Shown: positions 1 to 63,161 of the stretch, piece by piece
How positions within the stretch are numbered: position 1 is the stretch's first letter
Layout of the letters: each line of letters begins with the position of its first letter
Virus record (IMG/VR): IMGVR_UViG_3300047160_018490
Span: 13,903-77,902 of that record
Origin: a virus
Taxonomy: Duplodnaviria; Caudoviricetes
Strand: one strand, 5' to 3'
Length of the DNA stretch: 64,000 nt
Made by a program: the position numbers and the translations under genes
Notes under the pieces: model-generated
Told to the model about the DNA's origin: nothing
The model's database searches: none
Seen by the model: only the letters and a program-made list of their open reading frames with translations

Positions 1-1075
1 CCTGACCCACGGGGTTGGCGGCTACCCTTCTTACCGCATCACTGAAGCGAGCCAGGGTAAGGGGGTCTCCAGGGTCACCTGGGATGATCCAGCCATGCTT
101 CACGTTGTCTGCAAGGGCCCAGACGGGAGAGCAGATGGGCATGCACCCACACGCCTGGGCCTCCATGCACTGGATGCAGGAGGTCTCAGTGAAGCCAGTA
201 CAGTAGACCCACATTCCCGCGGAGAGCATCTCCCTCCAGAGGTCCGGTTGCCCGAGGCGCCCCCTCCAGGTGATCCCAGGCTGCTCCAGGAGGGGGATGG
301 CCCTTCTCTTGAAGTCTGCCCAGGAGGACTTCGGGTGGTCGCGGACGATCTTGTCGATGTTGTCCCAGCCGTAGCAGACGGAGAGCTTCAGAGAAGGTTC
401 ATACTCCCTGGCCCTCTTGAAGATGTTCAGGAGTGGTAGTAGTCCTCTATCTGGAGAGGAAGCATAGACGATCTTCTTTGGATCACGCTCCAGCCTGCCG
501 CATGGGTCTTTCGTGTTCCCAGGGCAATTGCAGGACGGCCAATTGCAACCAGGAGTCATTGCCCGTGCCAGGTTCTCCACAGCTTCGATCCCGTCCGTGC
601 AGATGCCGTTGCTGGAGACGCACACCTTCTCCGCCACGTCCGGGTAGCGGTAACGCAGGTGGCCGGCGTGCGTCTGGCACAGGGCGATGATACGGTCGAG
701 CTTCTTTCGTCTCGCCTCATTCAGCCCGGCTAGTGGCCCGCTGTCGGGATAGTCTACGTCCTGGCAGATTAACCACAATTGCTGTCCTGGATGTTCCTCA
801 GGGAAGTGATCCAGAGCATCCGGGCAGCGATAGAGAAGCCATACACCTGGCCTGGTGAAGGTGACATCATGGCGGTGCAGCCAGTCTACACCACCAGGAC
901 CTGGAGAAAGGCAATCCTCGGGGATGGGGGCATAGGAGAGTACGTCATGACCGCGATCAGCCAGGCGGCGAGAAAGCTCTACATGGGAGGTTTCACTTCC
1001 CCCAATACCATTCAGAGTGGGGTTTCTCCAATCCCAGTCCTCGAAAGATACTGGACTATAAAGGGTGAACCTCAT
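1..1075 (-). CDS. GT4-family (GT-B fold) glycosyltransferase, C-terminally truncated by the window edge
   Basis: Absent from the ORF track because it has no stop in the window. Manual translation from ATG 1075 (ATGA overlap with the upstream stop) is open to position 1: MRFTLYSPVSFEDWDW...GIGGSETSHVELSRRLA...VSSNGI...IVYASSPDRGLLPLL...FTETSCIQCMEAQACG (E-x7-E motif of GT4). Confidence 0.85.
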   Translation of the reverse strand, partial: MRFTLYSPVSFEDWDWRNPTLNGIGGSETSHVELSRRLADRGHDVLSYAPIPEDCLSPGPGGVDWLHRHDVTFTRPGVWLLYRCPDALDHFPEEHPGQQLWLICQDVDYPDSGPLAGLNEARRKKLDRIIALCQTHAGHLRYRYPDVAEKVCVSSNGICTDGIEAVENLARAMTPGCNWPSCNCPGNTKDPCGRLERDPKKIVYASSPDRGLLPLLNIFKRAREYEPSLKLSVCYGWDNIDKIVRDHPKSSWADFKRRAIPLLEQPGITWRGRLGQPDLWREMLSAGMWVYCTGFTETSCIQCMEAQACGCMPICSPVWALADNVKHGWIIPGDPGDPLTLARFSDAVRRVAANPVGQ

Positions 1076-1632
1076 GGCTCCTCCCCCCGGGAGAGGATGG
1101 TAAGCCCACAGCAGTTCCGGTAGTGCCTCATCACTTTCCACTCGGGATGTGTCTGCAGGAACCTTCCCAGGGCCAGCAAGAGGCCCTCCCTCTTGTCCTC
1201 GCCAATTACCCCCCACTCCTGAGTGTCATGCAGCAAGATCCACTTACTTACCTTCTCGGCATGCAGCTCCAACTCCCTGTGCAGAATGGTTCCTGCATGG
1301 AAGGTGTCGATGAGGAGGAGATCCGTTGGCTCGATCTCTACCTCCCTGGTGTCCCCCTGGATAAAGAGCCAGCAATCCCATGCCAGAGGTCCCAGGGCGG
1401 CCACCGTCTGCGTGCAAGGGTCGCGGTCATAGGAGATGAGGCGCCCGTGTCCCTCCTTGCAGCCCATCAGCAGCGCCACCGTGGAAACCCCATGACGGAC
1501 GCCGAATTCCGTGACGTGGGTACAGCGGGAGGCCAGCTTGCGCAGGAGAGGGCAGTGATCCCGCATGTCCGAAGATGCGACGCACACCTCGGCATAGGCC
1601 GCCTCAAGGTTTGGAGAGGTCAGGTGTGTCAT
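1072..1632 (-). CDS. class I SAM-dependent methyltransferase (Methyltransf_24-like)
   Basis: Motifs VTEFGVRHGVST, LISYDRD, DLLLIDTFH and WILLHDT. Confidence 0.8.
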   Translation of the reverse strand: MTHLTSPNLEAAYAEVCVASSDMRDHCPLLRKLASRCTHVTEFGVRHGVSTVALLMGCKEGHGRLISYDRDPCTQTVAALGPLAWDCWLFIQGDTREVEIEPTDLLLIDTFHAGTILHRELELHAEKVSKWILLHDTQEWGVIGEDKREGLLLALGRFLQTHPEWKVMRHYRNCCGLTILSRGEEP

Positions 1633-2267
1633 CAGTTGAAGTCGTTGAAGATGGCGGAGACCGCGTTGTTGATGTCCGTGTCTGCTTGCGAGGCAGCGAC
1701 ATTGAGCTGGTAGTGGTTGCTGGCTGGGTAGTCCGTCTGGGTTGTACTCAACACCGCCACCGGCAGCAAGTAAAGCTGGGCATAGTTTGACTGGTTCAGG
1801 AGGATCTGCTTGGCCTGAGCCGCTCTTGCTGTGTGATTGACCACAGACACCCCTGCTGTGGTGCGAGACACCGATGGGGTAGGGGTGGAGCCTCCTGTCA
1901 GGCTGTTCGTGCCAATCGTGATGAGATTGAGAGGCAGGTTCCCCAGCGTACCAGCGAAGGTGATCGTGATTGGCGTTCCAGGCAGGGGACCACCTGTGCA
2001 GATCACGTTTCCACTACCAATGGAAGTAAGGTTCTGGAGAGCCGTCTGTACTGTGGCGGCGTTGGCGTTGAAGGCGATGGTGACAGTAGTTTGCCCTGCG
2101 TAGGTGAGGGTGAACGTACCCCCTGTAGGACCACCAGAGATGGAGAGGGTCTGGACCTCATTGGCCACCTCTGTCCCAACGTTCACGGCCGCCTGCACCA
2201 CCGCGGCAGCAACCCTCTGCTGAAAGTCACCTACGGAGGTGATCTGGACTGCATCGGACAGGCTCAT
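1632..2267 (-). CDS. virion/tail-associated structural protein with a TGGTFTLTY..GQTT..IAFNA domain
   Basis: Thr/Gly-rich beta module EVQTLSISGGPTGGTFTLTYAGQTTVTIAFNANAATVQTALQNL..IGSGNV, of a type I recognise from phage tail proteins; located at the distal end of the tail cluster. Confidence 0.55.
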   Translation of the reverse strand: MSLSDAVQITSVGDFQQRVAAAVVQAAVNVGTEVANEVQTLSISGGPTGGTFTLTYAGQTTVTIAFNANAATVQTALQNLTSIGSGNVICTGGPLPGTPITITFAGTLGNLPLNLITIGTNSLTGGSTPTPSVSRTTAGVSVVNHTARAAQAKQILLNQSNYAQLYLLPVAVLSTTQTDYPASNHYQLNVAASQADTDINNAVSAIFNDFN

Positions 2268-2271
2268 GGTA

Positions 2272-3720
2272 TTACCCTCCCGAGATGCCCGTGATTGAAA
2301 CCGTCTTCGTGTAGATGCAGGAAATTTTGGTGGGCGGGCCGGTAAACTGAGGCACGAAGGTAACCCATTCCTCTGTGTCTTGGAAGGCCACTGGGTAGGA
2401 GTAGGTTGTCTGTACCTGCATCACCCAGGGGGCCTCATCATCACTCCAGGGCCCCAGGAGCTGCACCCCCTCGCTTTCGTCCTTGGAGAGAAAGGGCGCC
2501 CAGGGAACCCGTTGGATGGGCGTAAAGGGGCCCTGCTCGTCCTCCAGGGGCATGTTTGCGAGAAGGGTAGAGATCTCCTCGAAGGCGGCTACTGGAGCAT
2601 TCCAGTACCCCTGCGTGGTCCCGGGGGAAAGATACTCCTCCTGCTCCAGGGCAAAGTTCATGAGGAAGGCAGAAGCTCCTACCTCATCGTCTGCAGAAAG
2701 GAGAGGGGTCCAGGGCACCTGCTGCTGGAGGGGAAGGAAACCCTCTTCCTGCTCATAGGGGAAGTTCAGGAGTGGGGAGGTTACTTCCTCAGGAGCGGGA
2801 AGGAAAACACCCCAGGGTACTCGCTGCTGAGGAAGAGATGGCTGGTCCTCCTGATCCACCCCCAAAGTAAACCACATCTCGTCTTCCTTCCCTGGTGAGG
2901 TGTGGACTTCCCCCGGGGGAAGAGGGATAACCTGGATGCCTGGAGGGAAGTAATCCTCGCTCTCCACGTTGATGGGGGTGATGCCCTCGCTTTCATCTCC
3001 TGCGGCAGGAGGAGGAGGAAGGAATGGCCTTTGCATTCCTGGGGGGAAGTAGTCCTCCTGCTCTGGGGTGTAAATCAGGACCTCATCTCCCTGCACTGCG
3101 GTGAGAGGTGGGTAAGGAGTTTGCTGAGTAAGAGGGGGGGAGGGGTTTTCTTCCTGCTCCAAACCGAAGTTCAGGAGGCTGACCCCTTCTTCCTCGCTCA
3201 GAGACGCCATCAGAGGAGGGGTAGGGATGCTCTGTGCAGAGGGAAGAGCAAAGAGGTCATCTTCCCAGCGCAACTGCCCCAGGGTGCCAGACTCCTCGGT
3301 ATCGGGGGGGAGGAAGACCCGGGTGAGGACCTTCTGAACAGGGAAGAGGACCAGCTCGTCTGCATCGATTCCAGGACCTACCAGAGGGATGAGGTCTTCG
3401 TCTACCGGGCTTCCATTGATAGCTGGCAGGGAAGGGGGCAAGGCATAGAGGCTGGAGGGAAGAGGCGGTGGTTCTTCCTGATCCAGACCCAGGAAGTGCA
3501 AGGCGATGCCGGCATCTTCATCAAGGGCTACCGAGGTATTTGTGGGATAAAGAACTGGCGGCTGCGCAGGGGGGAGCCCCTGGCTTGCGTAGAATGCCTC
3601 CTCCTGCTCTATACCAAACTGGATGCCTGCAATACCCTGGGCCTCATCGTCCTGCGCGGCGGCGAGCAGGGAGAGAGTATTCAGGATACGAGGGTTCTGG
3701 ATGGGATAGAGGAGTTGCAA
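2272..3720 (-). CDS. acidic Pro-rich repeat protein, about 12 degenerate 30-40 aa units
   Basis: TTG start with AAGGAGG 9 nt upstream. Recurrent (F/L)G(L/V/I)(E/D)QE(E/D)..P...Q..PW.P units; very few Lys/Arg. Confidence 0.65.
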   Translation of the reverse strand: MQLLYPIQNPRILNTLSLLAAAQDDEAQGIAGIQFGIEQEEAFYASQGLPPAQPPVLYPTNTSVALDEDAGIALHFLGLDQEEPPPLPSSLYALPPSLPAINGSPVDEDLIPLVGPGIDADELVLFPVQKVLTRVFLPPDTEESGTLGQLRWEDDLFALPSAQSIPTPPLMASLSEEEGVSLLNFGLEQEENPSPPLTQQTPYPPLTAVQGDEVLIYTPEQEDYFPPGMQRPFLPPPPAAGDESEGITPINVESEDYFPPGIQVIPLPPGEVHTSPGKEDEMWFTLGVDQEDQPSLPQQRVPWGVFLPAPEEVTSPLLNFPYEQEEGFLPLQQQVPWTPLLSADDEVGASAFLMNFALEQEEYLSPGTTQGYWNAPVAAFEEISTLLANMPLEDEQGPFTPIQRVPWAPFLSKDESEGVQLLGPWSDDEAPWVMQVQTTYSYPVAFQDTEEWVTFVPQFTGPPTKISCIYTKTVSITGISGG

Positions 3721-5642: not shown

Positions 5643-6146
5643 CTAGGAGGGGACGGGGAAGGGGCTCTCTTTCTCCAGAAGCTCCAGGGCCTTCCCAAGT
5701 TTACCACACTCCTGAAGGGCGAGGAGTTCCTCCCCTGTGAGGTCCCGCCCGAACTTCTTCCTCATCTCCTCCTGCACACTCTTACAGAACTCATCATCCG
5801 GCTGGGCATAGGTGCCTGCAATGGCTCCGTGGGTCTCGAAGCACTTCGCACAGAGCCAGAAAGCGAAGGAGGTGTTGTCCTTGGGGACGTAGCCGAACTC
5901 CTTGCCGCAATTCGCACAGTAGACCATCACACATTCACACCTCACCGTGGTGCCGTCGGGCATGGGCCAGTCCACCATCTGACTCCCGAAGGTGGGGTGA
6001 TGCGTGAGGCGCGAGTCAGGGAGGATGTGGGCATTTCCTGGGTTCATGAGTGCCCCTCGAACGAGGTTACTGTCACGTCTGGGGGAGAATAGTCCGGGCA
6101 GGTCTGGCAGCAGTAAACCCCCTCCAGGGCCCTCTGTGGGGTGCAT
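5643..6146 (-). CDS. hypothetical protein with CxxC pairs
   Basis: VYCANCGKEFG and WLCAKCFE motifs; start position uncertain. Confidence 0.5.
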   Translation of the reverse strand: MHPTEGPGGGLLLPDLPGLFSPRRDSNLVRGALMNPGNAHILPDSRLTHHPTFGSQMVDWPMPDGTTVRCECVMVYCANCGKEFGYVPKDNTSFAFWLCAKCFETHGAIAGTYAQPDDEFCKSVQEEMRKKFGRDLTGEELLALQECGKLGKALELLEKESPFPVPS

Positions 6147-6451
6147 TTCTCATGGAGGGCACAGGCGAAGAGCTTCAGGAGTACCTTCCCTTCGCATGAT
6201 GGGCACTCCTGTACTTCTCCAGTGGCGTCCCCCAGATGCCTGCAATATCTTCCCCGGGGGAAAGGAGGAGAAGGGAGAGGAGGAGTGGAAGAAGGCATCT
6301 TGCTCTCCAAGGGGAGGAGAGGCCCTACCTCGTCCGGCCAGTTCATGAGCTTCCGCCAACATAGCAGACACTGATCGTAGGTGTAGAAGCCCCTTCTGGC
6401 CTCTCTGCCTGGGTGCTTACCGTCACAGATATTGTGGAGGTTATAGCTCAT
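6044..6451 (-). CDS. Cys-rich hypothetical protein
   Basis: Likely start ATG 6451 (TAAGATG coupling to the upstream stop). C-terminal CRHLG...CPSC..K.FACALHEKCT...CCQTCPDY. Confidence 0.55.
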   Translation of the reverse strand: MSYNLHNICDGKHPGREARRGFYTYDQCLLCWRKLMNWPDEVGPLLPLESKMPSSTPPLPSPPFPRGRYCRHLGDATGEVQECPSCEGKVLLKLFACALHEKCTPQRALEGVYCCQTCPDYSPPDVTVTSFEGHS

Positions 6452-10635: not shown

Positions 10636-10655
10636 TTACTGTTCAGGAGTGGAGG

Positions 10656-11026: not shown

Positions 11027-11668
11027 CTAGTCGTCCATACTCATCGGCTTCCTCGTCTTCGCATCCCTCTTCTGAGTCGTCCTCCCGTTGCCCCCCGAAG
11101 CCTCCTCCTCCGGGGACACCTCGTTTCCCTCCGCCCAGTGAATGGCGAAGGTGCAGGCGCTGGCATTCTCCTTCCAGATTGCACGCACCTGGGAGAGGGT
11201 TACCTTGCGGTCACATCTCCTCAGAAGAAGGTAGACGTAGTAGTGAAGGCCAGGAACATCCGTGCGGGCGCTGCGGCAGTGTTTTCCATCCCAGTTGTAG
11301 TGCCCTGCCCCGCAGTCTCCAATGTAGGTGGAGCGCATCTGGTGCGCCTGCTCAGGGTAGCCTTGAAGGTAGACCTCCTCGATCACTTTCAGGGCGCCAG
11401 CGCGGACCCACTCCTCGAACTGAGCCCGGATGCGGTACTCCAGAGGAGCTACCTTCCACTCCCTGCCCAGGGCGAAGAGAGTGTCTCCGGATTGCCTGTC
11501 CTGAGGAGGGTTTCCTGCATGTTCCCCCAGGACATCAGACCATCCGAGGTTAGGCTCTCCTTCCCCCGGGGGAAGAGATTCCTCCTCTTCCTTCTCATCC
11601 ACAACATCCTGGGCCTCCTTTTCGGCCTCTCGGAGTTGCCTCCTGAGTTCTTCAGTCTCCGCGCTCAT
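11027..11668 (-). CDS. tail assembly chaperone (gpG-like)
   Basis: Lies between the tail tube region and tape measure and contains an in-frame slippery heptamer. Confidence 0.75.
   Translation of the reverse strand: MSAETEELRRQLREAEKEAQDVVDEKEEEESLPPGEGEPNLGWSDVLGEHAGNPPQDRQSGDTLFALGREWKVAPLEYRIRAQFEEWVRAGALKVIEEVYLQGYPEQAHQMRSTYIGDCGAGHYNWDGKHCRSARTDVPGLHYYVYLLLRRCDRKVTLSQVRAIWKENASACTFAIHWAEGNEVSPEEEASGGNGRTTQKRDAKTRKPMSMDD
11123..11129 (-). promoter_or_regulatory. programmed -1 ribosomal frameshift heptamer G GGA AAC
   Basis: The minus strand reads GAG GGA AAC in the gpG frame, the canonical X XXY YYZ phase. A -1 slip gives GGG AAA CGA..., in frame with ATG 10994. Confidence 0.8.
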
Positions 11669-12330
11669 GCGCTGCTCCTTTCTTCTGTGCTCGGCTTCGG
11701 GAGTCTCCTCCCATCAGGTCTTGCATCCGTATCCAGGTCCTGGATGACTTCTCCTCTGGGGTCCAGAAGGCGTGGAGGGGTGTAGCAGGAGGCACAGTAG
11801 TACCTTCTTCCAACCATTGCCCCCCTCAGGTAGAGGACCTTTCCCTTTCTGTCTCCCCATACTCCTGATGGTTTACTTCCAAGTTCAGGAGTCACGTCTA
11901 CTTCATCGCTTACCGCCCAGGTGGCCAGGCGGGAGCACTTGCAGCACTTCCGATCCAGGAGAGGGTTCTGAATCCTCTCTACCTTCATTCGGTTACGCTG
12001 ACCTCTCTCCTTGGCTCTGCAAGCTACACAGAGGTCATCTCCAGGCAGGGTGAGGGGCGAGGGGCAAAGGGCACACCTCGGGGCACCCATCGTGATCTTC
12101 AGGTGTCCTTTTCTTCCTTTATCTTCTCGCGGGATGAAGCGAAACCTCCCCTTCGCTCGATAGGTGAGGAAGTTGCCGTTGAGGTCTGGGATTTCTTCTC
12201 CCAGGGCGTTCACCTGGTAGGCTTCCAGTTCCCCTGTGTCTGTGTTGAGCCAGATGACCTTCGGCACTTTCTTGCCGGTGTCCAGGTCGATCACGGTGCC
12301 ACGGAATCCAGACTGAACGTGCAGGAGCAT
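11665..12330 (-). CDS. hypothetical Zn-finger-like protein
   Basis: CALC...CVAC and CCKC...CASC pairs; inserted between tube and chaperone genes. Confidence 0.6.
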   Translation of the reverse strand: MLLHVQSGFRGTVIDLDTGKKVPKVIWLNTDTGELEAYQVNALGEEIPDLNGNFLTYRAKGRFRFIPREDKGRKGHLKITMGAPRCALCPSPLTLPGDDLCVACRAKERGQRNRMKVERIQNPLLDRKCCKCSRLATWAVSDEVDVTPELGSKPSGVWGDRKGKVLYLRGAMVGRRYYCASCYTPPRLLDPRGEVIQDLDTDARPDGRRLPKPSTEERSSA

Positions 12331-12788: not shown

Positions 12789-13601
12789 TTATGTAGTTGC
12801 CGCCACCAGGTCTATTTCCACCGTGGCTGCATTGAGGGGGTCATTGTTTACAATGAGGATCTGCCTGGAGACTGGAGTAATGGGGCAATACCCGGTGCCC
12901 TGCGGGTCTGCATCCAGGCACATATGCACCCCACCCATCTGAAGAAGGAACTGCCCAATCACCACACTGGGCACGGTGGCACCCGAGTATGCCTTCCCCC
13001 CCGCAAGAAGGGTAGCCGTGGTAGGGACTCCTGAAGCATTGGTGGTAATGGCAACCACGCACCCGGAGCCGTACTGCTGGCAGGGTGCCACCAAGAAGGT
13101 ACTGGAAGGAGAGTAGCCGCTGCCCGCTACCCCGATGGCCACCCCGGTAACCGCACCTGCGCCCACTGTGAGGACGAGGGTGAGGCCAGTGCCTCCGTTC
13201 CCAAAATCGAGCTGGGCTGGCATGGACGCCAGATTGTTTGTGATGGCTACCGTGGTGCCAGGGTCAGGAGCTGGTACGATGTTGGGATTGTTCGTGGCGG
13301 AGAGGAGGCGGAACAGGAAGCTCTTGAGGCGAGCAACTACGACTCCTATTTGTCCTAGAAGATCACCCATCGAGTATAGATCCACTGTGGCTTGACCACC
13401 AGATGCAATGCTGACCTGGAAGGAAAAGACCTCGTCGGCGCCAAGGGTTGTTGTGTTCGCCTTCTGGGTTCCGAAGACATACTGTGTCTGAAGAGTAGTA
13501 GCCTCTACAGTAGGCTGGAGGAGTCCACCCGGTTGGGCAAGTTGCACCTGCCAACCGATGGTGGCTGTAACCGTTGCATTAACGCTGGTGGCACCGGGCA
13601 T
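12789..13601 (-). CDS. virion structural protein (tail/neck associated)
   Basis: Thr/Gly/Val-rich 270 aa ORF within the neck-tail cluster. Confidence 0.5.
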   Translation of the reverse strand: MPGATSVNATVTATIGWQVQLAQPGGLLQPTVEATTLQTQYVFGTQKANTTTLGADEVFSFQVSIASGGQATVDLYSMGDLLGQIGVVVARLKSFLFRLLSATNNPNIVPAPDPGTTVAITNNLASMPAQLDFGNGGTGLTLVLTVGAGAVTGVAIGVAGSGYSPSSTFLVAPCQQYGSGCVVAITTNASGVPTTATLLAGGKAYSGATVPSVVIGQFLLQMGGVHMCLDADPQGTGYCPITPVSRQILIVNNDPLNAATVEIDLVAATT

Positions 13602-50994: not shown

Positions 50995-53317
50995 ACGCCT
51001 TCCCGTTACTCTTCTCAGGTTGCAGGTGAAGCCTGTTCAGGAGTGTGGTGTAGTCTCTTCCCAGCGTCCTGGAGAAGGTGGAGAAGACCTCCCTCGCCTT
51101 CTTCCACGAGAAGGGAAGGATCTCATCCCTTACCATCGTCCCCTTCAGCGTCTCACCTACGCCCAGCACACATTCTGCAAGGGCGGCACCAGGGAGCGAG
51201 CCCCAGAGGCTATTAAAGCTCGCCCCTGATGACCACCCCGCGGTCCCCAACAGGAGACCAGCACCAGGCGCACTCCACAACGCCTGCCCCGACATGAGGA
51301 CCATCATGGCACCAGGAGAGCCATACTCCTTCACCAGGTTGGTGGTAAAGCCCTCCGCTCGCTTCTCCAGGAAATGAGAGGCTGCATCTAACTGCTCCAG
51401 CGTCTTTCTGTCTTTGATGGCTCTGAGGGCTTGCTGGTGTTTCAGGAGTGTGCTCCCTGCTCTGTGAAGAGATCTGGACAGGCGTGCAGAGAAGCTCCTA
51501 TCGAGGCTTCTCCTATCTACCCTTTCCCCCGGGAAGGACTTGAGGAACTTTCTGGGAGGTCCAGCCTGCATGGCCTGGGAGTTGGGGTTTTCCACCTCGC
51601 CACCACCGGCTTCCATCTGCTGGCCGTTTCCGCCTCCCTCTTCTTCCTCGCCCTCTGCACCTTCTTCCCCTTCTGGAGGCAGCATGGGCTGAGGCATCAT
51701 GGCCTCCAGGTATTCCCCCATCGCCAGGTAGGGCTCGATGGGCTCCTGAGCGTTCACAGCCCAGGGGGTGAGGCCACCTGGCCCTGCAATCATGGGGTTG
51801 TCGCCACCGAAGCGATAGGGCTTGCGTCCTCGCAGGGCGCGGACCTCGTTGGGCGTGATGGCATAGAACGCCCCGTCTACCTGGAGGTCTGCGTTCACCT
51901 GCTGGGGATCTGCGGGGACACAATCATCCCACCAGAGCCGTACATAGCGAGCGCCATAAGTGCCTCCAGCACTACCATCCCCGAGGGCCCAAGCAGATCG
52001 GGTTGAGGCAGGCTCGTCCCACTTCTTCGCAAGGTGCTTGGTAAGAGTCTGCCCCCTCTGCGCCAGCCTTGGATTGAAGCAGTTGCTGCACAGGGCGGCC
52101 AGCACGGCAAGAACACTGCCATACGTCATGCCCTCACTGATACCGATGGCGGTCTTGGGGACGTGGAAGGCAGCCAGGATCATGTCACGGATCTGCTCCT
52201 CCGATTGGAAATAGGCCATCTCCGTGGGGGAGAAGGAGAGAGGTGTGATCTTCGCCCCAGGAGGGGTGATGACTGGCTTACCGTAGTTGTATTCTCCCTG
52301 GATCTTGCTCATGAACTTCGCCTCCAGACGAGCTATCCTGTTGTCGTCTGGATCTTCGTAGCCCTCGCCCAGCTCCACCCAAAATTCTGGGCGGGCCTGG
52401 TTCATGAACTGGGACCATCTGGACTTGGAGATGGACTCCTCGCTGTCGATCCACTGCGCCACCGCGGCGAGCTTGGCATAGCCATCAATCTTGTTGATGG
52501 GGCTCTTCCACCGGGTCATGATGACTTCATCAGGGGGAAGGCGCAGGATACCCGCACTCCCCATCCCACCCCAGGGGCGTACCTCGTAATACTGGATGAG
52601 TTCATCGAAGTGAGGGTTATCAGGAGGTACATAGGAGTATCTGTAACGGAGGTAATCACCAACCTCTTGCCCCTCGTCGTAGCGCCTCAACTTGTCGTAG
52701 TCGATCCTGTTGCCGCTTCCTCCTGTGCGTGGCCATACCCAGTGGCTCGGGATGACCCACAGCTCGCATGGGATGCCCCACCTATTGGGGACCATCCAGA
52801 TGTAATCTACCCCGCAAAGCTCAGAAAACATCTGAGCTTCGTAGGCAAAATCAAAGGCTGTGTCGTGCTTGTTGGGGTTCTCGATCAGCTCGCGGAGGGT
52901 GTGGTCTCTCTCCAGTGGCTCCAGCTCCTCGTGGGGCTTCACCACAGAGAGGGCCTTACTCCTGTATGCCCCCATCGTGAGCCAGGAGTATCCACCCTCA
53001 GTCACCCAGGAATCCTGCCCAAAGCCACCACCCATGAAGCGATGAGCAGCCTTCTGGGTATTGGGACCTGGCATGTCTGAGACGTATGCCATGTTGGGCA
53101 TCATGCCAGCCATCTTGCTGCAGATGAGGTCTATGGCAACGAAGCACCAGTTCCTCATGTGGAGGACTTGTTCCAGGCGATCTTGTGACCATCCCCCAGG
53201 CCAACCCGTTCCCCTGTTGGGGAAGAGGGAGGCCATGATGCGCTCGCCCTTGGCTGCACGCTTCTCCCTCAGGCCCCTGATGGACCTGAGTGCTGGGAGG
53301 TATTTGTCTACGCGCAT
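50981..53317 (-). CDS. HK97-family portal protein with a C-terminal extension
   Basis: NWCFVAIDLICSKMA, ELIENPN, LWVIPSHWV, LPPDEVIMTRW..P...DGY, PTEMAYF, AAFHVP and ITPNEVRALRG.KP motifs. Confidence 0.9.
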   Translation of the reverse strand: MRVDKYLPALRSIRGLREKRAAKGERIMASLFPNRGTGWPGGWSQDRLEQVLHMRNWCFVAIDLICSKMAGMMPNMAYVSDMPGPNTQKAAHRFMGGGFGQDSWVTEGGYSWLTMGAYRSKALSVVKPHEELEPLERDHTLRELIENPNKHDTAFDFAYEAQMFSELCGVDYIWMVPNRWGIPCELWVIPSHWVWPRTGGSGNRIDYDKLRRYDEGQEVGDYLRYRYSYVPPDNPHFDELIQYYEVRPWGGMGSAGILRLPPDEVIMTRWKSPINKIDGYAKLAAVAQWIDSEESISKSRWSQFMNQARPEFWVELGEGYEDPDDNRIARLEAKFMSKIQGEYNYGKPVITPPGAKITPLSFSPTEMAYFQSEEQIRDMILAAFHVPKTAIGISEGMTYGSVLAVLAALCSNCFNPRLAQRGQTLTKHLAKKWDEPASTRSAWALGDGSAGGTYGARYVRLWWDDCVPADPQQVNADLQVDGAFYAITPNEVRALRGRKPYRFGGDNPMIAGPGGLTPWAVNAQEPIEPYLAMGEYLEAMMPQPMLPPEGEEGAEGEEEEGGGNGQQMEAGGGEVENPNSQAMQAGPPRKFLKSFPGERVDRRSLDRSFSARLSRSLHRAGSTLLKHQQALRAIKDRKTLEQLDAASHFLEKRAEGFTTNLVKEYGSPGAMMVLMSGQALWSAPGAGLLLGTAGWSSGASFNSLWGSLPGAALAECVLGVGETLKGTMVRDEILPFSWKKAREVFSTFSRTLGRDYTTLLNRLHLQPEKSNGKAYAHS

Positions 53318-53736: not shown

Positions 53737-54014
53737 GCGATGGCCGTGAGCAAGATAAGGAAGAGGACGGCGCCCAGCACGCAGAAGGCATACCAGACGA
53801 TCTGGGAGAGAAGGGAGATGGCGCGCAGGAGGGGGGTGAGGAGCCTCTCCAGAAGAGGAGGAGGAAGTGGGGCCTCCTCGTACCAGCCATACTCCTGAGG
53901 AGGTTGCTTCACCTCGCTCAGGAGCTTCAATACGTACTCCACCATTTCCATGTGAGCCGTGTTCTGAGGGGGCATCAGGCACCTGTCATGGATTTGATCT
54001 GGGCTGACAGCCAC
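53715..54014 (-). CDS. small membrane protein
   Basis: C-terminal TM segment IVWYAFCVLGAVLFLILLTAIACVF. Confidence 0.45.
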   Translation of the reverse strand: MAVSPDQIHDRCLMPPQNTAHMEMVEYVLKLLSEVKQPPQEYGWYEEAPLPPPLLERLLTPLLRAISLLSQIVWYAFCVLGAVLFLILLTAIACVFYQS

Positions 54015-54172
54015 ACGAACACAGGCGTGAGGATGACCACCACTCCCACGACGATAGCGGCTATTCCGATCCAGAAAACCAGCTCCTTCAGGAGTGGGTA
54101 ACGAAGCTGTCCTGAGTAGGCCGCCATCAGGATGCCGGCGAGGATGATGCCTAGAAGGATGAGGAAGTACAT
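53975..54172 (-). CDS. small two-TM membrane protein
   Basis: Two hydrophobic helices; GAGG upstream. Confidence 0.6.
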   Translation of the reverse strand: MYFLILLGIILAGILMAAYSGQLRYPLLKELVFWIGIAAIVVGVVVILTPVFVWLSAQIKSMTGA

Positions 54173-54397: not shown

Positions 54398-55132
54398 CTA
54401 GATGGCGTTTCTCCTGGGGCCAGAAGAGCCGGTGTTCAACCTCGGGATGCGGCGCAAGAGGTCTTCCGCAACCTGGTTGGGGTTCTGGCTTTGGGAGATC
54501 ATCAGGCAGAGCATGTCCACGAGATCGCGCGGGCAAGCCTGCCTCGCAATCGTCACGGCGGTTGGGTACTGCTGCTCAGGAGGCCGGCGAGGAGAGACCT
54601 TCCTCACTGCCCCCACACCCTCATCCACGAGTAGCTGCCTCACTTCCTGGATGTCCATACTCTCTTTGATGGCCCTCTCATAAAGAGGACGCACCTTCTC
54701 GTCCGTAAGTTCATACCTTTCGGCCTGGGAGGGGAGGAGTTTTCCTTCTTCAGGAGTCCCCCCAGCATTCCGATAGACGAGGCCCCTTCCTCTACGCCTC
54801 CTTACGAACCTCTGAAAGTACCTTACTGCCCCGTAGGTGAGTGGTCCTGGAGGTCCCAGGATTACCACAACCCCAGCAGTCCGGATAAGGGCTTGAACCA
54901 TTTCCTTGGAAATGTCAAGACCCTCGGCAGCATTCTTGATACCCTCTCGCCGCGTAAGTTTCAAGCGCCTTCTCTCGCCTTCGGGGAGAAAGTCACCCTT
55001 TTTCAGGTGCTCTATAAGGTAACGCAAGAGGAGATCTCCGGCCTCGATGTAGGCGTCTCTTCCCCTCTTCAGGCAGACTTTCACCCGGTTAAGAAGTGGC
55101 TGCGCCCCTTTGTCCTTCAGGAGTGTGCTCAC
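54398..55132 (-). CDS. basic helical hypothetical protein, possibly nucleic-acid binding
   Basis: 244 aa Arg/Lys-rich ORF; no family recognised. Confidence 0.6.
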   Translation of the reverse strand: MSTLLKDKGAQPLLNRVKVCLKRGRDAYIEAGDLLLRYLIEHLKKGDFLPEGERRRLKLTRREGIKNAAEGLDISKEMVQALIRTAGVVVILGPPGPLTYGAVRYFQRFVRRRRGRGLVYRNAGGTPEEGKLLPSQAERYELTDEKVRPLYERAIKESMDIQEVRQLLVDEGVGAVRKVSPRRPPEQQYPTAVTIARQACPRDLVDMLCLMISQSQNPNQVAEDLLRRIPRLNTGSSGPRRNAI

Positions 55133-55612: not shown

Positions 55613-55859
55613 GGGGAAGCCCTATGGAGGCAAGGAAGTCAGGACAGGAGACCAGCACCCTATCAGTACCTCTGAACACATCTTCAGGAACACCGAGGCG
55701 GGCGTAGTCATCCTCCTGAGGTGCGTACTCCTGCCCCCTCTTGCACTCGGGGCAGAGGTAATGCCCAACGCAGGTGAGCACGACCTCTTTCCCGCAGCAG
55801 TCACAGTAGGCACAGCCCACCCTCTGATGGATAGGCCAGCCGTCTTTATCCCACGTCAT
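55605..55859 (-). CDS. small Zn-finger protein
   Basis: CAYCDCC...HYLCPEC. Confidence 0.5.
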   Translation of the reverse strand: MTWDKDGWPIHQRVGCAYCDCCGKEVVLTCVGHYLCPECKRGQEYAPQEDDYARLGVPEDVFRGTDRVLVSCPDFLASIGLPPA

Positions 55860-56205
55860 CCGGGGCCTCCACCTTGGCGAGGATGTCGCTCTCCACCATC
55901 ATGCGAAACTCCGGCTCCTTGCCCTTCACCTTCTCCTCCTTCTTGAGGATGTAGGCGGTGCAGCACTCAGGAGGGACGCTGCTGCCTGCGTAAGCAGGGA
56001 AAAGCACCACGTCCCCCACAGCCAGGCCCATCGGCACTCTCTGCCTGTCGTAGTGATCGAGGCGCCCGGGTCCAATCTCCACGATGAGGCCCTTGCAGGG
56101 GCGGTCCTTCGCTGCATCAGGGAGCAGGATGCCACCTTTCGTGATGCCCTGGGTGTCCAGGATCTTGACGAGGACACGATCATTGCGAGGGTGGACGCGC
56201 GGCAT
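55846..56205 (-). CDS. groES: co-chaperonin GroES (Cpn10) homologue
   Basis: VHPRNDRVLVK...TKGGILLPDAAKDRP..G.IVEIGPG...VGDVVLFPAYAG...ESDILAKV. Confidence 0.93.
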   Translation of the reverse strand: MPRVHPRNDRVLVKILDTQGITKGGILLPDAAKDRPCKGLIVEIGPGRLDHYDRQRVPMGLAVGDVVLFPAYAGSSVPPECCTAYILKKEEKVKGKEPEFRMMVESDILAKVEAPDDVG

Positions 56206-56468: not shown

Positions 56469-56765
56469 TTACTGGTTATCAACCAGCTTCTGGAGGTCGG
56501 TAATCCGCTTCTCCATCTCACCCATATGGGCTTCAAGGTTCTTGCAGCGCTGCTCGGACTCCCTGAGCTTCTCCTCGTAATGGCCACGCAGGATGTTCTG
56601 CCTATCCAGCTCCTTCAGGAGGTCCCCCACGTCCTGGGCGTACTCAGCGTTCTTGCAATTGCCGTAGCCGAAGCCAGCGTCCTTGCACCTGTTGCGGATC
56701 TCCTTCTCCCGCTTCTCGGAGAGGGGAGGCATGGGGATCACGACGGGGGTCTCACTCGCTGGCAC
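56469..56765 (-). CDS. coiled-coil hypothetical protein
   Basis: AEYAQDVGDLLKELDR followed by heptads. Confidence 0.55.
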   Translation of the reverse strand: MPASETPVVIPMPPLSEKREKEIRNRCKDAGFGYGNCKNAEYAQDVGDLLKELDRQNILRGHYEEKLRESEQRCKNLEAHMGEMEKRITDLQKLVDNQ

Positions 56766-56886
56766 AGCTCACCATTCCCTTTCAGGAGTAGCTCCACGAT
56801 GAGGAGGAGGTCCCACACGGCATCGAAGACGATGAGTATGATCTCCAGAACGTCTTCGGTGTCCGTACCTTGCGCCCTCCTCCATT

Positions 56887-57177: not shown

Positions 57178-58578
57178 CTATCTTATCCAGAACTCCTTCT
57201 GAACCCCTCTCAGGTGGGAGATGATATATCTTAGCGCATCTAGCCGGTGATAATCCTCCTTGTCTTCGATGTCCTCAGTGGGATTGCTGGCGTCATCCAG
57301 CTCGCGGGAGTAGTTCTGGAACTCATCAATCAGGCCGGTGCAAGAAGAGAACACCCTGAGCTGGTCCTGCTTCAAGGTGGCGGTGACTCTGTTGATGCCT
57401 ACCTCCACGTCCTTGATGGGTGGCGCGTTCACGAAGAGGCCGCCTACCCTAAACTCTTCTCTCCACTGGTCTTCGGAGTGGGAGCCACCATAAGCCTTCG
57501 GGCGCCTGGTAGCTCCGGCTGGACCTAGAGGGTCCTCACACACTTCACCCTTCAGGAGTGCCTCCACATGCTTCTTCGCCGTCTGGGAGACCCATCTCCC
57601 CTCTTTGGGATATTCCCTGTAGCAATAGAGCTTGCCCGTCTTGTTGCCGTTGGCATCCAGTTCGGCTGCAAGGAAGACTCCTGCTGTATGCACTCCTCCA
57701 AAGTCCAGCCCTAGATAGCGTGGCCAGGAGTGGGGAATAGAAAAGGGAGCACACACATGCCTCTCAGTGAGGAAGTCCTCATAGATGATGCCAGCCGGTC
57801 GCTCGAACTCCCCGTCATAGAACATCTTATGCTTCCAGGTGGGGAGGATGGCCTTCGTCCTTTCATACTCCTCCCGGGGGAAACAGGGATTCTCGATACT
57901 CCGAAATTGCACCACGTCGATGTAGGGGTGGGAGTGGTCTGGCTCATCTTTATCCTTGCAGGAGCACAGCCTCCTCTGGCACCTTCTCCACGGCTCGAAG
58001 AGGAGGTTACGCAACCATCCCAGGGTATAGGGGGTGGTGGTGATGAGGACGCGCCCCTGGTGGATGGAGAGGCGCCGCTGGACTGCTTCCCAGGTCTCCA
58101 GCTTGAACTTCTTCTGTCCGGCCTCATCCAACCAGGCTGCCTTCGCAGTGGCACTCTCGATGGAGTCCGGGTCCATTGCGTGACCGAAGAAGACCTGGGT
58201 GTCTTCCGAAGTCACATGGCCATAAAGACTTCTGGCACCATGCGCGTTGAAGAGGAAGCGACTCTGAAAAGAGCCCCTCCCCGTGAAGTCACCCCAGCGG
58301 CACTGGGTGCGAAAGAGCCTAAGGAACTCCGGAAAAAGCTTGAGGGAGAGGAGGCGGAAAGTGGGGGCTACCACCAGGTAGTCTCCTGGCCCCTTTTCCT
58401 GCACCTCTCTGGATAGCCAATAGGGCCCAAATGAGGTTTTTCCCGATTGCGCCCCAGAGAGGACCAGTATTATCCTCTTCCTGGAGTTCCATGCCCTCCA
58501 CTGCCCTCGGTGGAAGTTGAGGTGCATCACTCCTGATGAGTCTACGTAACTCAGTGGCCGTACTAGAGTTGCAACCAT
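57178..58578 (-). CDS. terL: terminase large subunit
   Basis: Walker A SGAQSGKTS, Walker B AAWLDEAG, coupling motif TTTP, nuclease GLDFGG and C-terminal YHRLDALRY. Confidence 0.95.
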   Translation of the reverse strand: MVATLVRPLSYVDSSGVMHLNFHRGQWRAWNSRKRIILVLSGAQSGKTSFGPYWLSREVQEKGPGDYLVVAPTFRLLSLKLFPEFLRLFRTQCRWGDFTGRGSFQSRFLFNAHGARSLYGHVTSEDTQVFFGHAMDPDSIESATAKAAWLDEAGQKKFKLETWEAVQRRLSIHQGRVLITTTPYTLGWLRNLLFEPWRRCQRRLCSCKDKDEPDHSHPYIDVVQFRSIENPCFPREEYERTKAILPTWKHKMFYDGEFERPAGIIYEDFLTERHVCAPFSIPHSWPRYLGLDFGGVHTAGVFLAAELDANGNKTGKLYCYREYPKEGRWVSQTAKKHVEALLKGEVCEDPLGPAGATRRPKAYGGSHSEDQWREEFRVGGLFVNAPPIKDVEVGINRVTATLKQDQLRVFSSCTGLIDEFQNYSRELDDASNPTEDIEDKEDYHRLDALRYIISHLRGVQKEFWIR

Positions 58579-59042
58579 TCTTCTATAGCCCGCACGCAGT
58601 TCTCCCAGCCAGGAGATGGGTCATCTCTCGGTGGGTAGTTCCTCTGGGGTAGTGGGTCTTCTGGGTCATAGGAGAGGTGCGAGCAATGTGGCCTGGACCC
58701 ACTTCCTACATCACTCCTGCACAGGAGGCAACACTCATAGCGGTTACTGAGGAAAACCCTCTCGCAGCGGACGCAAACCTTCAGGTGGTAGAGGCCCATG
58801 ACTCCTGAATGGCGGCATGGCGTACAGAGGCCAACAATCTGATCGTAGCGCCTCTTCCTGCACCCCCTGCACAGTGAGGGATCAGGACCCAGGTAGAGCT
58901 TGAGTGGTGGTAGCTCAAAGGGTATCCGATACTTCCTCGCATTCACTACCCGCTTACAGAGGTCCTCTATCGGCAACTGATCCCAGGGAGTCCATACCTC
59001 TAGCACCATCTGCTTACCCTTAGCAAACGTCTTAACTTTCAC
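58563..59042 (-). CDS. Cys-rich hypothetical protein upstream of terL
   Basis: CRGC, CTPC, CVRC and CCLLC pairs; no terminase small subunit motif recognised. Confidence 0.5.
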   Translation of the reverse strand: MKVKTFAKGKQMVLEVWTPWDQLPIEDLCKRVVNARKYRIPFELPPLKLYLGPDPSLCRGCRKRRYDQIVGLCTPCRHSGVMGLYHLKVCVRCERVFLSNRYECCLLCRSDVGSGSRPHCSHLSYDPEDPLPQRNYPPRDDPSPGWENCVRAIEEWLQL

Positions 59043-59060: not shown

Positions 59061-59462
59061 TCATGGCCTGTTTCCGAAGACGGCGCCCTCAGCGAGGGAG
59101 GCTGGCAGCGAGTCTCTGAGGGTCTGCATCCTCCTTCTATGCAACCTATCTTCTGCCATCTGCGCGCTGACCTCGACCACCGCCTGCCACTCATCCTTGA
59201 TGATGGCCTTCAGAGTCATGGACTCGCTGGCCTCCAGCTTGGGGGCGTCCAGGGCCTTCAGGGCATTCTCCACGTTCAGGATGGACTGCTCGCAGGTCTT
59301 GATGAGATTGGAGAGGTACTCATCCCCGAAGGCAATCTGGCCCTGCGTCTGTGCTTCTCTGGAGGCGATGCGATAGGCGCACAGAGCATCCCTGAAGTCC
59401 TCCCTCAGGTCGTGGAGAAGGGAGAGGGCCTGCTGCGCCATCTCTTTGGTGTCTTCTGTCAT
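59061..59462 (-). CDS. helical hypothetical protein
   Basis: 133 aa ORF with AAGGAG upstream. Confidence 0.6.
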   Translation of the reverse strand: MTEDTKEMAQQALSLLHDLREDFRDALCAYRIASREAQTQGQIAFGDEYLSNLIKTCEQSILNVENALKALDAPKLEASESMTLKAIIKDEWQAVVEVSAQMAEDRLHRRRMQTLRDSLPASLAEGAVFGNRP

Positions 59463-59465: not shown

Positions 59466-59651
59466 TTACTCCTTGCATACCTCGGGTGAACAGGGAACCA
59501 TCTCGGTCACCTCGCTGCACTTGAAGAGGCAGCGCCCGCACACCAGCCTTCCATCGACCAGCATCACGGGTTGAGGGTGCTCGCAGCCATCGGGGCAATG
59601 GGCGTGGTCGCAACCCCTCTCCGCGCACCACTCTGTGTAATAGTCCCTCAC
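59466..59651 (-). CDS. small Cys/His-rich protein, first gene of the leftward arm
   Basis: Probable GTG start at 59651 (VRDYYTEWC..CDHAHCPDGCEHPQP...VCGRC). Confidence 0.5.
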   Translation of the reverse strand: MRDYYTEWCAERGCDHAHCPDGCEHPQPVMLVDGRLVCGRCLFKCSEVTEMVPCSPEVCKE

Positions 59652-59718
59652 TCCTGAACTTTCCTCTTCTCTTTTCCTGGAGACCGTAGATAATGACCCC
59701 TGGGAGGAGCCCTGGTTT

Positions 59719-59746
59719 ATCCTACTTCCCCCGGGGGAAGAAACAA
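59719..59746 (-). promoter_or_regulatory. putative leftward promoter with a palindromic operator as its spacer
   Basis: Minus strand TTGTTT-CTTCCCCCGGGGGAAG-TAGGAT, located in the divergent intergenic region. Confidence 0.5.
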
Positions 59747-59757: not shown

Positions 59758-60045
59758 GTGAGATACAAGATCATTTACCGGGTCTGGTACACCTCCGAAG
59801 GAGTTTTCCGCGAGGGCTGGTGCCCTTATGACTCACTGGATGAACTCGTGGTGGGTATCGAGCACTGCTGCCCGGCCGACGCCAGCATTATCTGCAACTA
59901 CCTGAACGAGCGCTACGAGCCGGAGGACGAGTTAGTGCAGAGGTTTAGAAGGTGGTTCACCTGCCAGCGGCTCTTCGGGCTACCAATCCTCGGGGTACAG
60001 GATACTCCGGTCTGGATACATGGCACCGAGGGAGCAGACCCATGA
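59758..60045 (+). CDS. MRY-family small protein 1
   Basis: GTG start MRYKIIYRVWY..EG.F.EGW..YDSL. Confidence 0.65.
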   Translation: MRYKIIYRVWYTSEGVFREGWCPYDSLDELVVGIEHCCPADASIICNYLNERYEPEDELVQRFRRWFTCQRLFGLPILGVQDTPVWIHGTEGADP

Positions 60046-60275
60046 GATACCAGGTACTCCTGAAGACTTGCTACGAAGGTGAATGCCTCTTCTTCTGGTG
60101 GGCCGCCTACGACTCCCTGAAAGACGTGGAGTGCGGGTGGTTCCACAGGCGCGAGGACGCCATCGATCAATGCAACATCAGGGAGACAGGTAAAAACAGT
60201 GCCTCCTCGATACAGCGTGCTTTCTACCGTCATATAGAGGAGTTTGGAGAGTGGGGTGTGTGGTATATTTTATGA
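60042..60275 (+). CDS. MRY-family small protein 2
   Basis: ATG at 60042 (ATGA overlap); MRYQVLLKTCYEGEC...AYDSL. Confidence 0.65.
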   Translation: MRYQVLLKTCYEGECLFFWWAAYDSLKDVECGWFHRREDAIDQCNIRETGKNSASSIQRAFYRHIEEFGEWGVWYIL

Positions 60276-60762: not shown

Positions 60763-61011
60763 ATGGAGCACTGCGCTGATTGCGGGAGGCTTATCCCCAC
60801 CGTCGTCTCGGCCGGGATGGTGCTTTCTGACTTCTCCTTCCTCTGCGTAGGCTGCATACACGGTGGCGCCTTCCTGTGCAGGGACTGCGGCGACAAGTAC
60901 GCCAAGCAGCACCCCAACGCCGCAGATGAGGGTGACTACCGCTGCTCGCGCTGCCTGGCCTCAGGGCGGAACCCCTTCTACGAGCGCCTGGCTTCCTCCC
61001 CCCACTCCTGA
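60763..61011 (+). CDS. small Zn-finger protein
   Basis: CADC, CVGC, CRDC and CSRC pairs. Confidence 0.55.
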   Translation: MEHCADCGRLIPTVVSAGMVLSDFSFLCVGCIHGGAFLCRDCGDKYAKQHPNAADEGDYRCSRCLASGRNPFYERLASSPHS

Positions 61012-61040
61012 ATTCCTGAAAATTCTTCCCCCCCCGCTCC

Positions 61041-61433: not shown

Positions 61434-61447
61434 AGAGGAGGTGCGCC

Positions 61448-62241: not shown

Positions 62242-62254
62242 AAAGGAGGCTGAC

Positions 62255-62488
62255 ATGGACCCCGTGGCGTGCTGGAGGGAGCTGTGCGATGCCCTCCTGA
62301 ATGGAGATCCCGAGGTGGCCGCCCATCGCGCTCGGGATCTTCATATGTGGTTCCGCAAGGGGGGCTTCCTGCCCAGGGAGGTCCCCTACGTGGTGTGGCA
62401 GGATGGCGCCCTGCTTCCCTTCGCCCAGCTCTGCGAGGCCGTCGTCTTTTCCGTGAAGAGGAGTAATCCCGAGAAGAAAGGAACCTAA
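62255..62488 (+). CDS. hypothetical early protein
   Basis: SD AAAGGAGG; MDPVACWREL...LHMWFRKGGFLP. Confidence 0.6.
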   Translation: MDPVACWRELCDALLNGDPEVAAHRARDLHMWFRKGGFLPREVPYVVWQDGALLPFAQLCEAVVFSVKRSNPEKKGT

Positions 62489-62490
62489 CC

Positions 62491-62880
62491 ATGAAGCAAC
62501 CCGATTGGGCCCTGTTACCCTTCCCTACTACGCGAGAGGACTGGATGGGCTATGCAGAGACGGAGAGCCCCCAGGAGACGATTTGTCTGCTCCAGGGGGC
62601 CACCGCCCCTACCCCTGTCTACATCCATCACAAGGCCCTGGTGGCGTTTGCACAGGCCGCCGGGATCGCCCTGGGAAGGGCCCTCATCGAGCTGGGATCG
62701 GGCATCCTGAGGTGGAAGGAGAGCGAGCGGCCTGGAGAGAAGGGCTACGCAGTCCGCCTGAGGGGGGCGCCCAACCTCCCCCTGGTGTTTGGTTATCTGG
62801 ATGGGTGCTTGCTGGTACATCACCTCCCCGAGGGGATGAAGGACCCCAACGAGGGCAAGACCTTCGAGAAAGGAGAGTAG
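62491..62880 (+). CDS. hypothetical early protein
   Basis: Co-directional and tightly packed. Confidence 0.55.
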   Translation: MKQPDWALLPFPTTREDWMGYAETESPQETICLLQGATAPTPVYIHHKALVAFAQAAGIALGRALIELGSGILRWKESERPGEKGYAVRLRGAPNLPLVFGYLDGCLLVHHLPEGMKDPNEGKTFEKGE

Positions 62881-62882
62881 CC

Positions 62883-63161
62883 ATGAAGACCCCATTCCCT
62901 AGCGTGAGAGACCTGGCCGCCAACCTCATCTTCACCAAGGTGGAGCTGAGGAACTACCCCAGGGGAGAGGTGGAGGAGATCGAGGTGCGTCTCCAGGTCA
63001 CGGAGGAGGGGTGGTGGCTGTGGACGGGTGACCCCCAGTATGACACCGACCATCGCGGTTGGTGGGGTTCAGGAGTCATCACCCGTACCACCAACTGCGC
63101 CGAGCTGGCAAAGGAGCTGCTGGCGGAGGCGAGGTGCGATCAGTCCATGTGCGGAAGCTAG
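62883..63161 (+). CDS. hypothetical early protein
   Basis: ATG at 62883 with AAAGGAG upstream; EVRLQV...WWLWTGDPQYDTDHRGWWG. Confidence 0.6.
   Translation: MKTPFPSVRDLAANLIFTKVELRNYPRGEVEEIEVRLQVTEEGWWLWTGDPQYDTDHRGWWGSGVITRTTNCAELAKELLAEARCDQSMCGS

Follow-up and report, generated by a model that had tools for sequence, protein, structure and literature searches.

The stretch of DNA considered here (the window; 64,000 bp) comprises bases 13,903–77,902 of one 77,902-bp IMG/VR contig (IMGVR_UViG_3300047160_018490). The contig is that of a tailed phage without a cultured relative; it is classed as linear, has a CheckV completeness of ~77%, and has a G+C content of 59%. The element of interest is an asymmetric word of nine bases, ACTCCTGAA (reverse complement TTCAGGAGT), which is matched exactly at 41 places in the window and at 49 in the whole contig, a density of 1 per 1.59 kb of contig. 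Codon-model gene calling yields 107 genes that cover 96% of the contig; the structural genes lie on a long minus-strand arm, and a plus-strand arm of small unknown open reading frames (ORFs) spans both contig ends. Recognised products are the large terminase, the portal, an HK97-type prohead protease fused to an AAA+ ATPase, two capsid-fold proteins, a glycosyltransferase–methyltransferase fusion, GroES, and a DnaJ-domain protein. The best cultured match is 34% identical for the capsid and 26% for the terminase; the latter, at most 26% identical to that of any cultured phage, is too distant for the mode of packaging to be read from it.

Over-representation of a nine-base word

A preliminary description, made by reading the window, listed at least 35 copies of the word. 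All 35 of its coordinates are exact matches; the total was an underestimate, given that six further copies begin at 20366, 21670, 39987, 49450, and 60056 (ACTCCTGAA on the plus strand) and at 32095 (TTCAGGAGT on the plus strand). Dinucleotide shuffling predicts 0.89 copies (standard deviation 0.98, maximum 5), and Markov models of order 1–3 predict 1.0–1.5. ACTCCTGAA is the commonest 9-mer and CTCCTGAA the commonest 8-mer (74 copies), and the runners-up overlap ACTCCTGAA. Positions 2–7 of the word (CTCCTG) are near-invariant, position 1 is mostly A (A 49, G 11, C 10, T 4), and position 8 prefers A and tolerates T (10 copies). None of the 49 copies is preceded by A. The edges of the word are sharp and its flanks are unrelated among copies, which argues that the copies are not parts of a longer element. 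One-off variants of the core occur at chance, with 18 observed and 16.9 expected; there is thus neither a cloud of decaying copies nor the depletion that a conversion-type repair drive would leave. A literature search with the sequence of the word itself returned primers alone.

The enrichment is not a by-product of the proteins encoded by the phage. We permuted synonymous codons within each gene in 300 runs, a procedure that keeps every protein and the codon usage of each gene. The shuffled sequences contain 9.1 ± 1.5 copies of ACTCCTGAA (maximum 15 in 300 runs), and about 7 of these 9.1 sit in DNA that was not shuffled, such that about 2 coding copies are expected compared with 42 observed. 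At every word length from 6 to 9, the family of words related to ACTCCTGAA is the top outlier under this shuffle (z ~12–13). The preliminary description had proposed that selection acts on the DNA and had named the loss of the enrichment in a codon- and dipeptide-preserving shuffle as the outcome that would speak against it; the enrichment survives our stricter shuffle, in which whole proteins are preserved, and this supports the proposal. Its statement that copies fall in different frames and both orientations is also borne out, with copies in five frames, in both orientations, and in intergenic DNA. The coding copies are read as TPE (13), xLLK/N (14), xSGV (9), xQEx (5), and FRS (1), such that all five stop-free frames are used; the sixth frame, which would contain TGA, is unused. 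Inside genes lie 42 of the 49 copies (86%), and the remaining 7 are at intergenic or gene-boundary spots; the non-coding ~4% of the contig therefore holds about 3.5 times its expected share. Among the peptide sites able to spell ACTCCTGAA, 42 of 72 (58%) do so, although ACT, CCT, and GAA, the codons that the word uses, are minority codons. Other frequent words, including CCCGGGGGAA, are realised at 11–27% of their compatible sites. These analyses confirm that ACTCCTGAA is a real DNA-level signal, maintained by selection on the DNA itself.

Copies of the word and the genes that carry them

In the coordinates of the window that follow, a copy marked (+) reads TTCAGGAGT and a copy marked (-) reads ACTCCTGAA on the plus strand; sense and antisense refer to the gene in which the copy lies. 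Near the left end, the copies at 426–434 (+), in a minus-strand gene, and 2765–2773 (+), in gene 2272–3720(-), are both sense and spell PLLN. The copy at 5708–5716 (-) is antisense in gene 5643–6047(-) (LQEC), and that at 6174–6182 (+) is sense in gene 6044–6451(-) (VLLK). An intergenic copy at 10642–10650 (+) occupies the gap between genes that end at 10635 and start at 10656. It is followed by a sense TPE copy at 11884–11892 (+) in gene 11665–12330(-); an antisense ASGV copy at 13027–13035 (-) in gene 12789–13601(-), where the relative L125 spells SGV as TCAGGCGTA; and a sense ALLK copy at 14250–14258 (+) in gene 14054–14554(-), where relatives have ALFA or TLCA. The glycosyltransferase–methyltransferase fusion gene 17072–18733(-) carries two sense TPE copies 27 nt apart, at 17801–17809 (+) and 17828–17836 (+). 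Within gene 19431–20432(-), an antisense copy at 20366–20374 (-) spells LQEW, for which the relative L001 has LKEW. Both capsid-fold genes contain a copy. In the second capsid-fold gene, 21016–22170(-), it is antisense at 21670–21678 (-) and spells FRS (FRA, FRN, FRG, or FRQ in relatives), and in the major capsid gene, 22476–24029(-), it is sense at 23479–23487 (+) and spells VLLN, which L125 spells as GTGCTACTCAAT.

Antisense copies also lie at 28776–28784 (-) in gene 28280–29083(-) (HSGV) and 29581–29589 (-) in gene 29523–30308(-) (YSGV). Gene 31135–33114(-) has two sense TPE copies, at 31990–31998 (+) and 32095–32103 (+). The gene for the 3055-residue protein, 33062–42229(-), contains sense TPE copies at 37253–37261 (+), 38009–38017 (+), and 41129–41137 (+), as well as antisense copies at 34861–34869 (-) (IQEY), 39105–39113 (-) and 39573–39581 (-) (both SSGV), and 39987–39995 (-) (PSGV). 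Three sense TPE copies, at 43651–43659 (+), 44872–44880 (+), and 47371–47379 (+), are found in the protease–AAA+ fusion gene, 42226–48321(-); at the last of these L001 has KPS. Sense TPE is again spelled at 49057–49065 (+) in gene 48802–49083(-), and an antisense copy at 49450–49458 (-) spells IQEC in the DnaJ-domain gene, 49070–49720(-). Sense copies in the portal gene, 50981–53317(-), spell TLLN at 51036–51044 (+) and TLLK at 51441–51449 (+); gene 53975–54172(-) has a sense PLLK copy at 54087–54095 (+); and gene 54398–55132(-) has two sense copies, TPE at 54749–54757 (+) and TLLK at 55116–55124 (+).

The copy at 56781–56789 (+) is intergenic, 16 nt upstream of the start of gene 56469–56765(-), and the copy at 57551–57559 (+) is sense in the large terminase gene, 57178–58527(-) (ALLK). 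Beyond the terminase, a copy at 58801–58809 (-) is located in a poorly coding stretch before gene 59061–59462, and the copy at 59650–59658 (-) stands at the edge of the divergent intergenic region, where it overlaps the called start of gene 59466–59651(-). Three copies are associated with plus-strand genes: one at 60056–60064 (-) is sense in gene 60042–60275 (VLLK), one at 61004–61012 (-) overlaps the stop of gene 60763–61011, and one at 63068–63076 (+) is antisense in gene 62883–63161 (GSGV).

A second word, CCCGGGGGAA, is also over-represented, with 19 copies in the contig compared with ~4.8 after the synonymous shuffle, most of them inside genes. At four places its copies make up the perfect palindrome TTCCCCCGGGGGAA (2908–2921, 11561–11574, 39839–39852, and 59726–59739), and the one of these that lies between the two gene arms, in their divergent intergenic region, is an operator candidate. 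About 11 half-copies are also present, for example at 2620, 6253, 25334, 33551, 47125, 51524, 57139, and 57873.

The head-gene region encodes an unusually full set of chaperone functions: a GroES (Cpn10, E = 1e-20) at 55846–56205(-), the DnaJ-domain protein (E = 3e-20), and the AAA+ ATPase that is fused to the prohead protease. A weak HNH match is found at 62255–62488, and in the part of the contig designated L005 (G000:C1 1-13902) there are small matches to a stress-protein KGG repeat (L005:3136-3483) and to a 78-residue member of a PHROG "DNA ligase" family (L005:5240-5476). The whole contig, which CheckV rates as 77% complete, has no recognised polymerase, primase, helicase, integrase, or repressor. 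Given that this contig is incomplete and that relatives are 76–99 kb in length, the genes for replication may belong to the part of the genome that it lacks. Close relatives were not found for a 610-residue early protein, a 998-residue protein, or a tail protein with a lectin domain.

Relatives, orientation, and searches for carriers

We compared the contig with sequences of 8–21 kb from seven relatives, whose capsids are 64–76% identical to that of the studied phage and whose G+C contents range from 42 to 62%. Each of the seven has 0–1 copy of ACTCCTGAA. In these relatives, which share the structural module and were compared outside their replication genes, no comparable word of 8–10 bases and no dialect of ACTCCTGAA was detected. 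At positions homologous to the copies, the relatives either encode the same peptide with other codons (SGV, VLLN) or have other residues (LFA or LCA for LLK; LKEW for LQEW; FRA, FRN, FRG, or FRQ for FRS; KPS, ESK, or LAE for TPE), from which it follows that the copies were written in within the lineage of the studied phage. This comparison of homologues covered genes other than those for the portal and the terminase, which both carry copies. The copies thus arose recently in the lineage, by synonymous substitutions as well as by ones that changed amino acids, and the capsid is among the proteins affected. The lack of dialects in the relatives shifts the weight from a core phage enzyme to a host-specific or accessory reader. 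In the closest relative (L124, capsid 76% identical), CGGCGCACC and GGCGCACC are mildly enriched, with 7 and 10 copies in 10.5 kb; we considered CGGCGCACC as a comparable signal and rejected it, as an excess of ~3-fold over the synonymous shuffle is too weak. Relatives (L240:1-2775, L127:1-639) also have very large genes upstream of their head genes that encode ADP-ribosyltransferase (PF03496/PF01129) or PI3/PI4-kinase-like domains. These occupy the place of the 2031- and 3055-residue proteins of the studied phage, and their domains suggest that the capsid of this phage family may hold diverse enzyme cargo.

The strands share the copies 30:19, a split that coding constraints explain in full, and 34 of the 49 point with transcription. 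Compatible sites are realised equally in both orientations, 27 of 45 (60%) in sense and 15 of 27 (56%) in antisense, and the bias toward transcription therefore stems solely from the peptides that are available. Along the genome, the two orientations follow one another at random, and the copies are evenly spread. Together, the equal realisation and the random order argue that the word is read in double-stranded DNA, from either side, by a reader that does not depend on transcription. The orientation data thus argue against RNA-level roles, promoters, polar roadblocks, and strictly polar signals. When both strands are considered, the spacing is slightly more even than random (coefficient of variation [CV] 0.76, P ~0.03). 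On single strands it is irregular (CV 0.93 and 0.74; largest gaps 11.8 kb and 8.5 kb), which argues against obligatory sites of lagging-strand priming. The closest inverted pair of ACTCCTGAA is 147 nt apart, no pairs form terminators, and AT-rich tracts are absent from the flanks.

We also sought the word in candidate hosts and other carriers. In cellular genomes, the background frequency of ACTCCTGAA is about 1 per 100–200 kb. Two cellular genomes that hold distant relatives of the terminase (G001 and G002) contain 23 and 40 copies per 4.6–4.9 Mb, which is background. The cellular lineages reached through distant relatives are Chloroflexota and Gemmatimonadota, and a two-word pattern is found in 401 Chloroflexota genomes at most as 2 pairs per genome. 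In IMG/VR, the matches listed by two pair-pattern scans are just random ones or tandem protein repeats in low-GC contigs. A complete scan with a stricter pattern found no dispersed carrier, a weak negative given a sensitivity of ~20–25% per carrier genome. The phage genome itself offers several hints on the host: AGG and AGA are the main arginine codons (823 of 1574) at 59% G+C, strong Shine–Dalgarno sequences of the AGGAGG type precede 79% of the genes, and the composition of the proteome suggests a mesophile. Its GroES provides no such hint because the nearest Atlas clusters are viral.

Candidate readers of the word

The single most likely reading, to which we tentatively give a probability of about 0.38, is that ACTCCTGAA is a Chi-like word of the host of the phage. 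The word (core CTCCTGA(A), with A preferred in front but never AA in front) would be a double-stranded-DNA recognition word that is kept by selection, and its likeliest reader would be an end-processing helicase–nuclease of the host, of the RecBCD or AddAB type. We posit that a phage without a recombination or anti-nuclease module of its own has piled up the Chi-like word of its host. On meeting the word, the host enzyme would stop degrading the linear or rolling-circle DNA of the phage and would then promote the recombination needed for circularisation and the formation of concatemers. The reader, and with it the mechanism, is our inference.

As a control, we applied the same analyses to Chi (GCTGGTGG) in the first 48 kb of phage P1. 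The 26 sites are divided 14:12 between the strands and use every one of the six frames; they fill 45% of the compatible peptide sites (26 of 58), the synonymous shuffle predicts 3.2 copies, and one-off variants number 46 compared with 47.5 expected. Statistically, the P1 sites and ACTCCTGAA are the same kind of signal, alike in the balance of orientations, the realised fraction (45% vs. 58%), the chance level of one-offs, and a near-equal density. The realised-fraction test with its P1 control is reusable for telling selected DNA words from coding by-products. Phages that lack a recombination module hoard Chi: LLS has 23 sites (1 per 1.86 kb), P1 has 50 (1 per 1.90 kb), and 32 copies of the Pseudomonas Chi are present in the Pseudomonas phage MD8; no octamer is commoner than Chi in LLS and P1, where the second-ranking octamer overlaps with it (Zheng et al. 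2025, PMC12315714; for Chi-hoarding phages lacking their own recombination module, see also Bobay et al. 2013, PMC3784561). The studied phage resembles these in that a short asymmetric word is its commonest k-mer, at a density within the range of about 1 per 1.6–1.9 kb, lies in genes against codon preference, is overlapped by the runner-up k-mers, and is missing from related phages. The profile of a Chi-rich phage, a commonest k-mer at about 1 per 2 kb and far above the codon-based expectation, is the one that we observe for ACTCCTGAA. The sporadic distribution of the word, with 0–1 copy in each of the seven relatives, is expected if it belongs to the particular host of this phage. Among the analogues put forward in the preliminary description, Chi fits best, given that the P1 control has the same statistics, and stoperators depart in two of the features that we tested.

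Several points weigh against a Chi-like word. No dense carrier of ACTCCTGAA was present among the 401 Chloroflexota genomes and one Gemmatimonadota genome. The word has neither orientation bias nor terminal clustering, unlike Chi in the cos phages LLS and MD8, in which both are strong (Zheng et al. 2025, PMC12315714); in our control, Chi of the headful phage P1 likewise lacks orientation bias (14:12). The sequence of ACTCCTGAA is unrelated to that of any known Chi. Its core of 7–8 nt, CTCCTGA(A), is near-invariant, and position 1 and the preceding base are informative as well. Known Chi sequences have, to our knowledge, 5–8 nt, such that ACTCCTGAA, with 9–10 informative positions, would be the longest. 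Statistics like those of P1 would come from any DNA word under strong selection. In favour of Chi, the ~60 ORFs scanned include no recognised recombinase, exonuclease, or Gam/Abc2-like inhibitor; the argument that the studied phage has no recombination module is nevertheless weak, as the contig is ~77% complete and most early ORFs have no recognisable family. Finally, recognition by a host enzyme and abundance in the host chromosome, with an orientation skew linked to replication, the properties that define Chi, would be assigned to ACTCCTGAA by analogy.

The main rival, possible but doubtful in our estimation, is that the word is the site of a phage-encoded DNA-binding protein that acts as a monomer on an asymmetric site of 9–10 bp. 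Such a protein might repress or silence genes across the genome, mark phage DNA as self so that a phage nuclease spares it, or serve in packaging or condensation. A sharply bounded site of about one helical turn that tolerates variation at its edges only would suit such a protein, as would the ~3.5-fold share of copies in non-coding DNA, with one copy at the divergent early/late control region, and an early arm full of small unknown ORFs, some of them Cys-rich. However, no helix–turn–helix, zinc-finger, or other DNA-binding or repressor family was recognised in ORF scans of this incomplete genome, and the lack of the word or a dialect in the seven relatives would require that the reader be a recent accessory gene. 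The location of 86% of the copies inside genes and the lack of a link between orientation and transcription also speak against this rival. A more specific form, in which a factor of the phage recognises duplex DNA that bears the word as "self", and so might license its packaging or spare it from a phage nuclease, strikes us as unlikely. The stoperators of Cluster A mycobacteriophages (L5 gp71 and relatives) are a natural comparison. They are 13–14 bp long, mostly intergenic, and oriented one way relative to transcription, and they block elongating RNA polymerase. ACTCCTGAA is like them in that dozens of copies of one asymmetric word are dispersed genome-wide at about 1 per 1.5–2 kb. It differs in its length of 9–10 bp, in being mainly inside genes despite the non-coding enrichment, and in an orientation that, when corrected for coding constraints, does not follow transcription (60% vs. 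56% realised); nor did the ORFs of the incomplete genome yield a family match or a homologue for a cognate repressor. An improbable alternative is the site of a phage DNA-processing enzyme, either a start site of a primase or primase–polymerase or a nickase site that leaves single-strand interruptions. The mean spacing of 1.6 kb is within the range of Okazaki fragments and the combined spacing is slightly regular, but the supply per strand is not, with gaps of up to 11.8 and 8.5 kb that are not remedied by adding degenerate variants. In addition, no primase, helicase, or nickase was recognised, the structural model of the 610-residue early protein is unusable (predicted local distance difference test score, pLDDT, of 40), the relatives have no dialects, and nick motifs need not be over-represented.

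Uptake sequences offer another comparison. The uptake signal sequences (USS) of Pasteurellaceae and the DNA uptake sequences (DUS) of Neisseriaceae are properties of bacterial chromosomes and are driven by uptake bias. ACTCCTGAA shares with them its asymmetry, a length in the range of 9–12 nt, both orientations, the use of all frames, and creation by synonymous and non-synonymous changes; their density is ~1 per 1–1.5 kb, and a range of ~1 per 1–1.6 kb typical of USS/DUS would include the word. Its 3' half, CCTGAA, is presumably also the 3' end of several Neisseriaceae DUS dialects, a match that we treat as a lead. A temperate phage residing in the chromosome of a naturally competent host, the genome of which would be saturated with the word, could carry such a signal. 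We consider this very improbable, given that the phage has no recognised integrase or repressor or other sign of lysogeny, inverted terminator pairs and AT-rich flanks are absent, decayed one-off copies are not enriched, and uptake bias would bring no obvious benefit to the phage. It is just as improbable that the word is a functionless product of directional mutation or repair, such as very-short-patch repair or a HIP1-like conversion of near-cognates. A realised fraction as high as 58% and the existence of a second, weaker word, CCCGGGGGAA, could point in this direction, but a conversion drive should deplete one-offs, which are at their expected number; several copies required at least 2 substitutions relative to homologues, including amino-acid changes; and no methyltransferase/Vsr pair was seen. 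We reject the idea that the word is a by-product of protein repeats, of codon or codon-pair usage, or of an anti-Shine–Dalgarno effect at the RNA level. TPE does recur in the linkers of two giant proteins and the complement of ACTCCTGAA does contain AGGAG, yet the enrichment survives a protein-preserving shuffle, the copies use five frames, both strands, and intergenic DNA, minority codons are chosen, and sense and antisense sites are realised equally. In sum, membership among stoperators, priming sites, or uptake signals fails in each case on at least one tested feature, and the data contradict at least one expectation of each of the priming or nick, uptake-signal, and repair-driven readings.

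Phage genomes filled with a single short, asymmetric recognition word are of a known kind; what is new is ACTCCTGAA in this uncultured lineage, and no new principle is shown. Were the reader encoded by the phage, the word would be a genome-wide self-mark that prevails over the choice of codons, and even of residues, in the genes for the capsid, portal, and terminase. A counterpart of Chi-type self-recognition, carried by the phage itself, would then have been acquired recently by one lineage of a widespread uncultured family. If the word is instead the Chi of the host, the phage genome alone would reveal the recombination hotspot sequence of an uncultured bacterium, and the word could be used to find that host by searching metagenome bins. 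The strategy of having no recombination module and many Chi sites, shown so far in enterobacterial and Pseudomonas phages, would also gain a case in a family of phages that is uncultured and very distant from these.

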